A stretch of DNA of 63,694 nucleotides, filler included, from Reticulomyxa filosa (Eukaryota; Protista; Foraminifera), in the NCBI GenBank assembly GCA_000512085.1. It is 18 parts of 18 records of this genome, joined end to end, with 100 filler letters (N's around TTAATTAATTAA, not from the genome) between each part and the next. Parts side by side here need not be neighbours in the genome. Positions count along the whole stretch, not along the records: positions 9,951 to 12,543 come from ASPP01020921.1; positions 12,644 to 14,744 come from ASPP01016126.1; 16 more parts are not named here. One strand, given 5' to 3'. A program made the position numbers and the translations under genes. How positions within the stretch are numbered: the first letter of the stretch is position 1; the number at the start of each line of letters is the position of its first letter. The notes under the pieces are model-generated. The model did no database searches, was not told the origin of the DNA, and was given only the letters and a program-made list of their open reading frames with translations. This document shows, piece by piece, positions 7,546 to 58,963 of the stretch.

Positions 7546-9850
7546 GAAAGATACTACGCGGGCCTGGTGAACGCAGGGGCCACGTGTTATATGAACTCGA
7601 TACTCCAAACCTTGTTTCATATTCCTTTTCTACGAAAGTCGATATTCGAAATTGCAATGGAAATCACCGACTGCATGTTGAAGCACAAGGACATTTGCTA
7701 CGAGTTCCAATCGTTGTTTATGAAGATGGAAGAGATGGGGAACAATCCTACCGAGTACTGCTCAGCAGTGACGACGGCGGATTTGATGGAATCGTTTGGC
7801 TGGGACAACTTGGACGCGTTTGACCAGCACGACGTCCAAGAGTTTTTGCGAATACTATTGGAAGCATTGGAACACAAACTGAAAGGAACAAACTGTGAGA
7901 CACTGATTCAAGACCTGTTTCAAGGAGAATGGGAGACAGTCATTGAATGTAAAGATGTGAAGCACTGCAGTGCTCGTCAAGAATTTTTTCACGATATATC
8001 ATTGAATGTAACCCCATCATCGTCATCATCATCATCATCGTCGCCAAAGCAAAGATCATACAATAACAATGACAGTCATCACTACAGCACTTGTTTGCCA
8101 ATTTGTACTACTTGCCCGAAACGAACGAAAGCTTTTCGATTGAAGAGAGCTTCGAGCAGTTTATTCAACGCGAAGAAATGACAGGCGAAAACAAGTACTA
8201 CGCGAACGACACTCTGGGCAAGCAGGATGCACACAAGTATATTCGCTTCTTGAAGTTGCCCACTGTGTTGGTTGTGCATCTAAAGCGATTTGCATTCAAC
8301 GCCTCGAGCGTAAGACCGACTAAGATCACCAGTTCATTCAAGTTCAAACAGAAGTTGAACTTGAATCGCTTTGTGTACGACCCTCATTCCCAATCATCAT
8401 CTGTTAATAACAATAAAAATGACAATGATAATGATGCTACTATCATCAATATCAAGAATGAAGATTTGAGTATGGATGACAAGGATAACATAAAAGATAC
8501 CAATAGCTGGCAAGGCTATTCCCACGTGGATATCGAGACTGGACCCTATCGCTATCGCTTGTACAGCGTGTTGGTACACAATGGAAGCACGAATCGGGGC
8601 CATTACTACGCCATTCTGTCACCCCAATGCGACAATATGTATTACCGATTCAACGATGAGGACGTGTCGTTGATGAAACACGAATGGCTGCAGTCATGCT
8701 ACAGAGGCCTTTGCAGCGCCTATCTGCTAGTGTACATCCGCGAAGACAAGATTCCTGAGCTCTTTTCCAACGTCAATCTGAACAATGATATCCCTTTGCC
8801 CGCCAAGCAGAACCGAAATAATGTCGAAAGTCGAGTGCTAGAGGAAACAGAAAGAATGAACGAGGAAAAGCGTAAGCTGCAACTGTTTCATATCCACGGA
8901 CACGGTCTCATGGATTTCCTCGAACGCAACACGCCGGAGATACACAAATGGATGACCGGACTGCCCGTGCTGCAATGGTCCAAACACGTCAAAATCGCCC
9001 CCACGTTGGAAGCCTTTTCTAATGCCATCCAAGACTGGAGTCGAGAGTACGACATCCCCGTCCAACGCATGCTGCTTTACCACTTTAGTGATAAGAATCT
9101 TGTCACCGAAGTTTGGCCTGAATCGCACGACTTTCGCACTCTATTGTGCTTGTTGGTGCTGGACACAGCCAAAGTTCCACACATCTTTGGTGATCCTTCT
9201 TTTCAAAATCTCAGCATTTCAAGTCTAAAGAGCGAGAACGATGCACACGCAAATGTAGTCTCGACATGCGAACATGCGCCTGTGTTTGAACAGGGCTCTC
9301 GCGTGGAAGCCAGTCGAAAACAACGTCAGCAGGGATGCGTGCTGCTGTGTGTCAAGTACTTTGATATTTGGTCGCAAAAATTGGAAATTATTGGATTTGT
9401 TTTGATAGATAAAGAGGCCACTCTCGGACACTGGGCCGAGCAGTATCTCATGAACTATCTTTTCTTCAATCAGGACAGCACTAAGACAGTCGACTTTGAG
9501 CCTATTCACAAACATCTTAAACCATGGGCCTGCGAAAAAATACACGAGTTGCGGACCATTCTCAATCATCCCAAAAGCCACAAGCGAGTACATCTGCAAA
9601 AGTTTGTGAATCAGAACTTGTATATTTACAGAGAATATATTGGCATTCGTAACACCACCATTTTAAGTAAATCCGGTCTAAAACCCAAAGTCGCTTATCT
9701 TACCTCTTCTCCGTCTACAAATTCATACGATTCTCTTTACGCCAAAACTATCTCACAACTCGGACTCTTGAATGGTAATGTCCTCGTCTTTCAACTACGA
9801 CCAGGCGCATTCGATTCCAGCCAAGACGAGAAAGCGCAGGTTCTCTATTA
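7546..9850 (+). CDS. Ubiquitin carboxyl-terminal hydrolase, peptidase C19, USP7/UBP12-like (internal fragment)
   Basis: Cys box GLVNAGATCYMNSILQTLF, SFGW....F.QHDVQEFLRILL, LPTVLVVHLKRF, His box LYSVLVHNG....GHYYA...YRFNDE.V and SAYLLVYIRE, plus a downstream KYFD UBL-like segment. Frameshift or short intron near 8010-8090. Confidence 0.93.
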
Positions 9851-9991
9851 NNNNNNNNNNNNNNNNNNNNNNNNNNNNNNNNNNNNNNNNNNNNTTAATT
9901 AATTAANNNNNNNNNNNNNNNNNNNNNNNNNNNNNNNNNNNNNNNNNNNNTACGTAAAAAAAAAAAAAAAAAAAGTTGTTTTGATACTGCG

Positions 9992-12518
9992 ATGGACAAA
10001 CTTATGATGATATCACCAATGATCTACACGTTTTATTGTAGTCCTTACAACAAAAACACCACGTTGAAAGCACTGGTCCAAGTGTCAGTGGATCATGATG
10101 GTTGCCGAGTAAAGTTCCACAAGCAGTTCAGTGACAAACATAAATCGACGACTTTCTTATGGGATCCATTGTTGGAGTATCAGAGACAGCAGAGTATGAA
10201 CGCAGATGCACTTGAATTACAGCTATTGTGGTATTGGAAGACGCAGCTGCAAGAGTGGCTCCAACTTGTCCCGGAATGGAGTGCACAAGAAAAGCTGTTG
10301 AACATCCCTCCCTCCATCTTTGGCAGATTGAAATCCAAGCTCAATCACCTCTTTGCCTCCGCGACTGATAGCATTAAAAAAAATTTTCGTCTCTGGGGTT
10401 CACAACCTTGGTCTCAAGCCAAGGCATTTCATGACAGGAACTGTGGCCACTGACAACTTAAAAACGGATAGTCAGAATCTCACAATTACAGAACTGGCCA
10501 TGTCCAAGCGCAATTCGGAGATATTAACACAAAGGGAGATATTCATCAAAGTGGTTCACTCCATCTCAGCTCAGGTGAAGTCAATGTGCAAGGATCCCAC
10601 CATTTAGATAGGTGTGCTTGTGTACGTACATGTATACGTGCATGTGTGTAGTGTCAAGTTTTAATTATTAAATATAAGTGTATATACATTTATATAATCA
10701 CAGAAAAGCGAGTTTGGATCTTGCGCAAACAAAGTACTTGATTGGCAAAGATTTGAATATTAAAAGCAGTGCAGAGGCAATATTTAGAGAAGGATCCACA
10801 GCAAAAAATTGGAAACAATCTGCTAGTTGCCAATAATGCATCCATCAAAATTTTTAAAAGTTCCTTCGATGTCAACAACGACACTGACGTGTTTGGCTCA
10901 TTGTTTTTATTTGGAAGTCGCATGAAAGCAAATAACTTGAATATTCATAAGTTTTGAAAAAAGAAAACTTTTGGAGCCACTCTTTTATATACATATATAG
11001 TCTAAACACGTACACAGCACTTTTTTTTTTTTTTTTGAAGTGGTGGCAAAGGCAAGTTAGCGAACTCAAATTTGGAGCTAGGAAATAATGCAGAAGTGAA
11101 AGGAGAGTTAAATACAAAAGATTCGAGTGTAAATGTAAAAAACAATATGACAATTTCGGGAAGAATGATGGCGGAAAATTTGGTAATGAGCGTGAAGAAC
11201 TCCTTTACTATCTTGTCCAGTGGAGTGTTGGACGCAAGTGGTAACACCACGATTGAAAGCAGAAAAGTGAGCCACAATGGAGCCATTCATGTACGTAAAG
11301 ACGCGACGCTACAAATGAAAGCAAAGGCGTCGTTTTTTTCGAGTTACCACAGTATAATGAAAGGGAGGGAAGGAAAGATCAGTATTGAAGGCTCCACTGT
11401 CGATGTGAACAGCTATGGAAATGTAAGGGATTTGCACCTGAAAGGAGACAATATCGTAGGAGTGGATGATTTTTTATACGGTAGTGACAAAAAACAGAGG
11501 CTCAAGGTGTCCAATAACATTGCTTTGGAAAAAAATGTTGGATCATTCGATATCACTCAAGCTCTCAGTCGTGACTGCGGAATTAGCTTAATTGCGCCAA
11601 TGATTAATGTCTCCAACAATATATACAGGTTCATTTTTAATATATATATATATATATGTACATATATAATTATTTATTTATTAAAAAATGCAAGTTTTAT
11701 TTGTTTGTTCGTTTGCCTTGAAGTGCAAAAAATGTAATGCTGAAATCAACGAGCGAAGTTATTAAAATTATCAACTCCAAAGTCGATGGACAGAACACAA
11801 TTTTGGACTCTGCAAAAGCGATCGAAGCTGCTGGCTCCGAAGTTTATGGAAGGGAAAATTTGATGATGAAGGCAGTCGGTGATATCGTGAACAAATGCAC
11901 TGAAGCAAACGTTGGTAACAAAAAAAAATGGAAGAAGGGGAAATTTAGTGCTGGAAAAAGCATGACAATAGAAAGTAAGGAAGGCTCCATTGTTAACGAT
12001 GCCTCTGATTTGAAATGTGAAAACGGAGACATACGAATCAAAAGCAAACTTGGAGTGCAATTTTTGGCACGTACGCATACATACATGTCGGAAAAAAGTG
12101 AAGACAAAACAATATTGCGGTCCACGACTACCACAAAGACGAAAACCTCGTTTGCTGCATGCGACGTGACTGCCGGAGGCAATATACTAATCAAAACGGA
12201 GGGAGATTTCAAATCTGTTGGAACTGAGTTTAAAGCAGGGAATGAATTTCTTGCAGATGTGAAAGGAGAAGCCTCTCTTGCCGGACTTGTTTTATCCGAG
12301 TCCGAAGAGAAGACGGAAAGCTGGTATTTTGGGCTGTTCAAAGAACGATCCCGTGTCGATAAGCAAAACTATAGAGCCAGTGTTGTGCGGGCCAAAACGA
12401 ACAGTATCATCCGATCCAAATCGTTAAAAACGACTGGAGTAAAGTTTGAAAATGGAGGAAACTTGGACATAACCGCTGAAAATGCAATTTTTGAAAGACA
12501 AATACTGAATAATGCTAG
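9992..12518 (+). CDS. Large protein with filamentous haemagglutinin/CdiA-like beta-helical repeats (internal fragment); introns 10612-10703, 10951-11040, 11629-11723 and one starting at 12519
   Basis: The spliced product has repeats such as GDIHQSGSLHLSSGEVNVQG, LDASGNTTIES, GSEVYGRENLMMKAVGDIVN, FSAGKSMTIESKEGSIVNDASDL and DVTAGGNILIKTEGDFKSVGTEFKAG, plus S/E/K-rich 'SESEEKTESWYFGLFKERS' spacers typical of FHA-2 repeats. Three GT-AG introns restore the frame, and single-base slips occur in A-runs (~10380, ~10492, ~10806). Confidence 0.75.
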
Positions 12519-12793
12519 GTTTGAAACGAAACCTTTTTTTTTTNNNNNNNNNNNNNNNNNNNNNNNNNNNNNNNNNNNNNNNNNNNNTTAATTAATTAAN
12601 NNNNNNNNNNNNNNNNNNNNNNNNNNNNNNNNNNNNNNNNNNNTAGTATGATATATACATATATATGTATATATATATATATATATATATACGTATACGT
12701 ATATATATGTATACCTATACATGTGTATGTAATGTGTATTGAATAAAAAAAAAAAACAAAACCAATGATAAACAGCAAAGAATATGTAAATAG

Positions 12794-57400: not shown

Positions 57401-58963
57401 TTGAGCAGCCATTCGTGTTGAAAGATACGCTGATGACCTTTGGCGAAAGTATGATGGACAACAACAAGGCCGTCGTAACACCATTCCCCAATGTGAATAA
57501 TGTCGCAAATGGTAGTGTCAACAAGTTGCATATAAATCGTAAGCAGTGGATCGAACACACCAAATTGACAAAACAGGACGTGGTCGAATGGGAAAAACGA
57601 TGATGAAATTGGGCATTTATTTCTTGTATCAATTGATATCCCACGAGCCGAGATTGTTGGAAATGCCAATCAAAGCCGATGGCAAATACAAAAACGAGCC
57701 CGTTGCTTCTCGCGAAGAGTGGTGCGAATTCTTGTGCAATATTATCTGCTTTCGAAGGATGTTTATCGGTCCTGATTGTTACAAGGACTACCTTAAAAAG
57801 CTGCTCACGATTGTGTGTCAAAACAATCGCGCTTGTCGATTGACCATTTACAATCGCTTCGTATTTGGACAAACCGTAAAGAACCTGCAACAGTTATATT
57901 TGAAGTATCGACAAGTCCAATTTGATATCGGTGATCCTTTTGGAGTTCACAAGGAATCCATGAGATTAACGTTTATGGAAATGAATCAAGATGATATCAA
58001 AGATGACGACAACAAAAAAAGTTACACTCTTTGTTTTTGTCTATTTATTTATTTATTTTTCTCTTTCAATGAAATGAATAATCATCCAATCCTGCTCAAA
58101 ACAATTAAAAAAGACGTCCTTTCCATTGGAAGAAAAAATGAAAATGACGAAGGCAAAAAAAAGTCTCGAAAGCGCAAAGCTCCAATGGACAATTTCGCCA
58201 ACGATGAGATGGCGTATCAGCCACCTTCCAAACGAAGACGCTGGATGCCATCAAATAACCCCGAGCTATCGGCCGACTATCCCAATGTGATAACTCGAAG
58301 CAAACAGTGGAAAACAGACCACAAGAGCGTTGGAGAGATTTCATACATTGATCAATGCAAAATGAAAGACTGCACCATTGACGTTTGCAATTTGATTCGA
58401 CGAGGCAAAGAAGAGGCATTGCTATTAAAAGACAATTTGAAAACAACCCGAGAAGAGTATTGGGTCCATTTCTTAGTAAGAAATCCAAGTCATTATTTGT
58501 TGTTTTACGAATTGGCTTTTGATGTCCCTGCTATCGCGGATAACGTGTTGGACTTGTTATCTCGAGGAACCGTTTTATTTGGCAATAGCGATATCTTCAT
58601 TGAAGAACGCCATGGATCCACAACCAGGCCTGTCGCGACCACACAAAATACATTACCAATCCCAGAGCCACATCAACATCTTCATTATGCTCATGGCCTC
58701 AGAGGCGCGCCCCCTGTCGCTGTTTCTGGTCATACCAATGTGCCATTCTCAATGTCCGGAACTGGGACTCTGCTTCCGCCTGGAAATCCGCCTCGGCTAT
58801 TGCGACAAGATGCTGTAACTGGAACAACCCCTACTTCTGCCACTTCTGTCTTGCATCCATCCGGATACAATGGAATTGGAGGATTGACAAACACCGCACG
58901 AATCAATCAAAGGCCACCAAAGAACATTCCATCAGGAGTCAATATCAACAGAAAATCTACAGG
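51480..58963 (+). CDS. UBR4/BIG (p600)-like giant protein, internal multi-exon fragment
   Basis: DOC-like segment (CPHRITI...R....LP......VTLELG....PIIKELKVYA). HEAT-like segments EEWCEFLC...LKKLL.IVC and ISY.DQ.K......V......YWVHF.......L.YELAF......VLDLLS resemble UBR4. Long acidic and RS low-complexity inserts. Confidence 0.65.
55676..55890 (+). repeat. Arg-Ser dipeptide repeat (RS domain) coding tract
   Basis: RSRSRSNSRSRNRTRDHTRSQSRSRSRSQSRSRSRSRSRSRSRERRRPRS...KSRSRSRSKS in ORF 54818-55999. Confidence 0.85.

Follow-up and report, generated by a model that had tools for sequence, protein, structure and literature searches.

A short contig of the foraminiferan Reticulomyxa filosa encodes, across several introns, a repeat-rich protein that resembles the haemagglutinin-type filaments of bacteria, which raises the question of whose gene it is, where it came from, and whether it still works. 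The contig (ASPP01020921.1, 2,593 bp) occupies positions 9951–12543 of the window, the 63,694-nucleotide stretch of DNA analyzed here, in which short contigs are strung together with N spacers between them. Its NCBI annotation is a partial gene model, RFI_24394, and genes usual for a eukaryote lie on other contigs of the window (ubiquitin protease, G-alpha, WD40, RGS, and SOD). The gene is a real, intronised, bacterium-derived filament gene; it is not a member of the CdiA/TpsA group, and any function it has would be that of an FHA-2 delivery rod. Its features, in window coordinates, are as follows.

9951..9975, plus strand: likely 3′ end of an intron further upstream (A19 + AG), from the sequence and by similarity to host acceptors
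9976..10375, plus strand: front region A, ~133 aa, an open frame with host-like codons
10376..10383, plus strand: frame break 1, at an A8 run that separates region A from the donor-derived part
10383..10430, plus strand: N-terminal motif of the bacterial donor family, IFVSGVHNLGLKPRHF, from a 16-mer matrix scan
10431..10611, plus strand: first solenoid rungs, with frame break 2 inside 10472–10495
10612..10703, plus strand: intron 1, GT-AG, phase 2, 92 nt, 71% AT
10704..10950, plus strand: exon 2, solenoid rungs, with frame break 3 at the A6 run 10803–10808
10951..11040, plus strand: intron 2, GT-AG, phase 2, 90 nt, 73% AT
11041..11628, plus strand: exon 3, free of frame breaks, a solenoid carrying a short helical insert that the donor family also has
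11629..11723, plus strand: intron 3, GT-AG, phase 2, 95 nt, 83% AT
11724..12518, plus strand: exon 4, free of frame breaks, the family core, positive for PF13332 and bearing long charged beta-hairpins
12519..12543, plus strand: probable start of intron 4, poly-T to the contig end, placed where the profile match stops at the preceding residues

The three introns proposed in the initial annotation hold: all are GT-AG and in phase 2, and at 90–95 nt and 71–83% AT they are similar to four host introns measured on other contigs of the window as the comparison set (71–126 nt, 69–75% AT). Retention of any one of them introduces in-frame stops or a frame shift. Introns 2 and 3, both used in the depositors' model, join their exons in frame, and exons 3 and 4 together run for 1,383 nt without a break. 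A fourth intron in the depositors' model, which removes the WYFGLF hairpin, is rejected because the bacterial family profile described below matches that stretch. Introns 1–3 and both probable flanking introns are all in phase 2, such that the exons within 10612–12519 are symmetric.

Since the contig opens with A19-AG, resembling the end of an intron, the ATG at 9992 is an unproven gene start. At the other end, exon 4 probably stops at 12518, because an AG|GT at 12519 is followed by poly-T up to the contig end. Judged from the sequence, both gene ends are likely missing, and the contig probably starts and stops inside introns. The C-terminus had initially been placed off the contig as well, and 26 bacterial relatives extend 380–2,395 aa past the family core, a part that lies beyond the contig in R. 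filosa, as would any pretoxin/VENN motif, toxin tip, or immunity gene.

Location in the host genome, as first proposed, is favored by both the introns and the codon usage. In a codon test with 12 host stretches and 8 genes of bacterial relatives as the two poles, the LLR toward the host is +0.061 per codon, and 7/7 coding pieces of the gene are positive; among the controls, 8/8 bacterial genes are negative, while 9/12 host stretches are positive and 3/12 are donor-like. According to passages of PMC10847448, a Midichloriaceae (Rickettsiales) symbiont was sequenced together with R. filosa. Contamination by such a symbiont, by another bacterium, or by a co-cultured eukaryote would be in keeping with this, with the CdiB-less haemagglutinin-like polymorphic toxins that parts of PMC11077975 describe from Rickettsiales, and with the lack of a flanking host gene on the contig. 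However, three host-style spliceosomal introns together with host-like codons exclude a bacterium, the Midichloriaceae symbiont included, as the source of the contig, nothing points to another eukaryote, and contamination is very improbable. Sections of 10.1101/2023.01.27.525846 report introns in 69% of the prokaryote-derived R. filosa genes, and intronisation is therefore an ordinary process in this species. Protein searches returned neither a paralog (the gene is single copy) nor another eukaryotic homolog.

The 3′ exon had been read as FHA-2-like, and the peptides quoted in support lie in exon 4, which PF13332 matches above cut-off (E 5.5e-9, 36.8 bits). The described richness in G, S, N, V, and I is likewise evident (42% of 614 solenoid residues). 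The anticipated match to the FHA-1 repeats of PF05594 did not materialize in any piece of the gene at E ≤ 1 or 10. PF05860, the TPS domain, also matches no piece of the gene, whose 5′ end in the host may lie off the contig, and an NCBIfam search gave nothing relevant. AlphaFold2, run on the depositors' model with its ten wrong N-terminal residues and one missing hairpin, returns an all-beta solenoid in which residues 376–404 form a long hairpin (pLDDT 79.6, pTM 0.81), in agreement with the beta-helix that had been expected. The top VIA-align match is EtpA (Z 19.6, and Z 19.5 at an rmsd of 2.1 over 211 for its secretion domain), followed by Vag8, SRRP, and HxuA; Foldseek against the PDB gives weak beta-helix rows only, with no match at E ≤ 0.001. 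On the basis of these models, the gene product is predicted to form a TpsA-like beta-helix.

The named relatives of the gene are bacterial. A phmmer search over 1.84 billion representatives gives 20 matches: the gene itself, a 108-aa fragment (P0002), and 18 family proteins, whole or partial, the longest of 3,033 aa, with 26–33% identity to the gene. The named relatives are Legionella, Legionellaceae, or unclassified gammaproteobacteria, with no Rickettsiales among them. PF13332 is present in 9/19 of the phmmer relatives, and PF05860 is positive in none of the relatives scanned (0/19, 0/5, and 0/12, some of these sequences being partial; a positive control was run). A genome scan recovered 13 loci, namely 10 from Legionellaceae, 1 from Coxiella, and 2 from a MAG labelled Marivirga; the latter two (L005 and L013) have a Legionellales-like gene order, and mis-binning is possible. 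The family is present in 29/199 Legionellales genomes scored, and 34/400 gammaproteobacterial genomes matched, 10 by the body and 24 through the lipase tip alone. Across 401 Pseudomonadota genomes, the gene itself has just two matches, L. drancourtii at 63 bits and, far lower at 23 bits, a canonical TPS/FHA/VENN protein. Insensitive word-based scans found no relatives in plasmids (tblastn, E ≤ 1), PDB sequences, JGI metagenomes, or viral contigs.

Members of the bacterial family are giants of 2,300–4,400 aa named "hemagglutinin repeat-containing proteins" (e.g., at loci of L. drancourtii, L. moravica, and L. saoudiensis; WP_444986711.1). In their operons (L001–L013, L041–L051), 1–3 small helical genes and a membrane-segment gene accompany the TPS-less FHA-2 giant, often with a TPR/membrane gene downstream; the operon is apparently undescribed. 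In three of the bacterial assemblies, the giant gene is cut short or falls into separate pieces (L006:3250-12982, L012:9143-12868, and L043:4170-12605). TpsB (PF03865) occurs in 0/5 and 1/5 carrier genomes, unlinked in the one case, and in 17/61 genomes of a class sample, while IcmL occurs in 9/10 carrier genomes vs 19/61 in the class sample; the two sets of ten carrier genomes have six genomes in common. It is this co-occurrence of IcmL that suggests Dot/Icm export of the giants.

The C-terminal 260 residues of 32 giants sort into 16 tip groups, in which OTU protease and lipase are the recognised tips. The OTU tips, carried by the giants L047:1342-14436 and L049:2979-13352, would act on eukaryotic ubiquitin. 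Downstream of another giant, L048:3-2245 harbors two orphan cassettes with a common N-terminus, differing C-termini, and small genes interleaved. The 16 tip groups, the OTU and lipase tips, and the orphan cassettes at L048 argue for a polymorphic-toxin architecture of the family. A loose pattern, applied without a control, finds an FF-type tail in 19/32 relatives and is given no weight.

The initial annotation had named a TpsA/CdiA-like gene as the source. This part finds no support in that form, given nearest relatives of Legionellales type, no detected TPS domain, TpsB in 1/10 carrier genomes, and the 23 vs 63 bits above; a bacterial origin with later intron gain, by contrast, is well in line with the bacterial relatives and with the profile evidence. 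A profile built from bacteria only (26 sequences) matches exon 4 colinearly at 130 bits, vs 36.8 for Pfam, and the family core around the F-x-A-R-x-H-T-Y and W-G-L hairpins is found in the gene at 23–30% identity. Intron 3 was likely gained after the transfer because this profile runs gap-free over its junction: the joined halves score 44.5 bits, each alone 14–16, and spacers put in at the junction lower the score.

The donor motif at 10383 is the top of 58,844 window 16-mers (19.4 vs 11.5), and its score exceeds all 94,601 interior 16-mers of the bacterial giants. The matrix was derived from bacteria only (12 Legionellaceae/Coxiella-type giants), and the likeness was first spotted by eye and scored afterwards. 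Since the motif sits at 10383, region A appears to be an unrelated addition ahead of the donor start, matching the foreign helical front region of the first description. It has no homologs among longer proteins, the Atlas, donor N-termini, or operon neighbors, and against profiles of the small helical and membrane operon genes, shuffled versions do equally well in 170 and 49 of 300 cases. The single-sequence model of region A is a low-confidence beta-hairpin with helices (pLDDT 43), and neither a signal peptide nor a TM segment is visible in it (maximum hydropathy 0.75). The stalk from motif to core measures ~385 aa, compared with 1,228–2,756 aa in 26 full-length relatives.

In a tree of 43 rows, P0002 is the partner of the gene (99/98), and their branch, within an unresolved 31-row group, is long at 1.39 + 1.1 changes per site. 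The gene is not placed inside a named clade, and, as the tree has no outgroup, the donor lineage is not fixed. P0002, the sister sequence, comes from a 574-bp contig and is 47% identical to the gene; its start, M-Y-S, matches the residues that span the intron 3 junction. It could be a second eukaryotic copy or represent the donor lineage.

The repeats had been described as spliced into one frame, which the assembly does not bear out. The spliced 5′ part shifts frame at the A8 run 10376–10383, within 10472–10495, and at the A6 run 10803–10808; the three breaks lie within ~430 nt, one of them away from any long homopolymer. Extra introns bridging them are rejected, the GT-AG pairs on offer being 49–60% AT and exon-like at breaks 1–2 and 60–67% AT at break 3. 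The N-terminal motif is kept although it lies upstream of the first in-frame Met. In the host comparison, 2/10 ORF junctions inspected shift frame without intron-like DNA: one in a ubiquitin protease (window 8008–8110, near 8073–8110; a Ser-rich insert and no typical intron), the other in a long ORF at an A-run near 57580 (57543–57600). The R. filosa assembly was presumably built from homopolymer-prone 454 reads. Three breaks per ~2.3 kb are denser than two at 10 host junctions, which counts against a working gene.

The breaks may instead be genomic, in which case transfer and intron gain are real and the gene is a recently dead pseudogene. Clustering of the breaks in so short an interval, the failure of atypical introns to rescue the frame, the single copy, and the tendency of A-runs to slip in replication too are all consistent with such a loss. 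However, exons 3–4 contain no nonsense codon, the splice sites are all intact, and two host exons show like breaks, one of them in a conserved ubiquitin protease; a dead gene is unlikely, though it deserves serious weight. Function until recently is favored because the glycine pattern is kept, exons 3–4 are open, and the splice sites are intact. The retention of the N-terminal motif and core pattern over a long branch likewise speaks for selection that lasted at least to the recent past.

The preferred reading, whose likelihood falls slightly short of even, is a domesticated toxin-delivery filament from a Legionellales-type bacterium. R. filosa likely acquired the gene from such a bacterium with giant variable-tip proteins, after which introns would have been gained, a new front domain fused, and about three quarters of the stalk lost. 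Provided that the frame breaks stem from the assembly, the gene would encode a shortened beta-helical rod that, by analogy with the FHA-2 region of CdiA, is predicted to push a hairpin sheet of FHA-2 type into the membrane of its target and bring in a cargo at its C-terminus. Bacteria, whether prey or invaders, may be the targets, either inside food vacuoles or at the reticulopodia. Several points count against a delivery filament: the visible part has no signal peptide, the contig lacks the cargo and the larger part of the FHA-2 region (~380–2,400 aa in relatives), no paralogs turned up, whereas polymorphic systems usually vary, Foldseek gives no match at E ≤ 0.001, and 3/12 host genes are also donor-like in the codon test. 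A bolder version holds that the whole delivery rod, and not the tip alone, of an undescribed TpsB-independent Dot/Icm polymorphic toxin system was domesticated, given a front domain of the host's own, and turned into a weapon that acts on bacteria by contact, and that the symmetric phase-2 exons could vary rod length by skipping; it is speculative, and the odds are clearly against it.

A functional gene could also have been reused as a non-toxic adhesin or structural rod, its tip lost or swapped for a host anchor. The top fold matches are adhesins (EtpA, Vag8, and SRRP), the stalk is shortened and the front domain replaced, and rhizarian genes of prokaryotic origin are enriched among extracellular proteins according to portions of 10.1101/2023.01.27.525846. 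The best-conserved part, however, is the hairpin-bearing delivery core, and the donor family is built as carriers of variable tips; reuse as an adhesin is rather improbable.

Eukaryotes borrow bacterial toxin domains. PMC3482391 catalogues such eukaryotic domains, and Reticulomyxa is not mentioned in the passages of it that were covered. Searches of the literature on Reticulomyxa, Legionellales, foraminifera, haemagglutinins, and polymorphic toxins, with few subscription journals covered, found no description of the gene or its bacterial family, nor any case in which a eukaryote took over a delivery filament of FHA-2 type and gave it introns and a new front end; the gene may already be listed in the supplements of 10.1101/2023.01.27.525846. 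If expressed, the gene offers a natural test of FHA-2 folding and membrane entry where neither a TPS domain nor an Omp85 partner is present. In Legionellales, the variable-tip system without TpsB, whose tips include a deubiquitinase and a lipase, is widespread and seemingly undescribed, and the R. filosa gene points to former contact of foraminifera with Legionella-type bacteria.

Among known systems, CdiA/TpsA proteins resemble the gene product in a predicted right-handed beta-helix with an FHA-2 (PF13332) region behind it, and its bacterial relatives in orphan cassettes and tips that vary at the C-terminus. For CdiA, parts of PMC9086364 and PMC13625785 describe FHA-2 as a region that is predicted to form a sheet entering the target outer membrane and that precedes the toxin. 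In contrast, no TPS domain, PF05594, or signal peptide is detected in the visible part of the R. filosa gene, a eukaryotic host cannot have a TpsB partner, and the gene has spliceosomal introns, a short stalk, and a foreign front domain; a canonical CdiA-type protein also scores far below the Legionella relative. The Legionellales-type giants are closer, with the family core, the helical insert, the N-terminal motif, and the absence of a TPS domain in common. They differ in that the R. filosa gene is eukaryotic and intronised, with a shorter stalk and an extra front region, and in that its contig, whose flanks are missing, carries no small helical or membrane partner genes. The Rickettsiales toxins, as portrayed in passages of PMC11077975, are comparable in having an FHA-like body, exchangeable warheads, and protist-associated carriers without CdiB. 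Finally, the gene joins the intronised prokaryote-derived R. filosa genes treated in sections of 10.1101/2023.01.27.525846, from which it differs in that the cargo here is a conflict-system filament.
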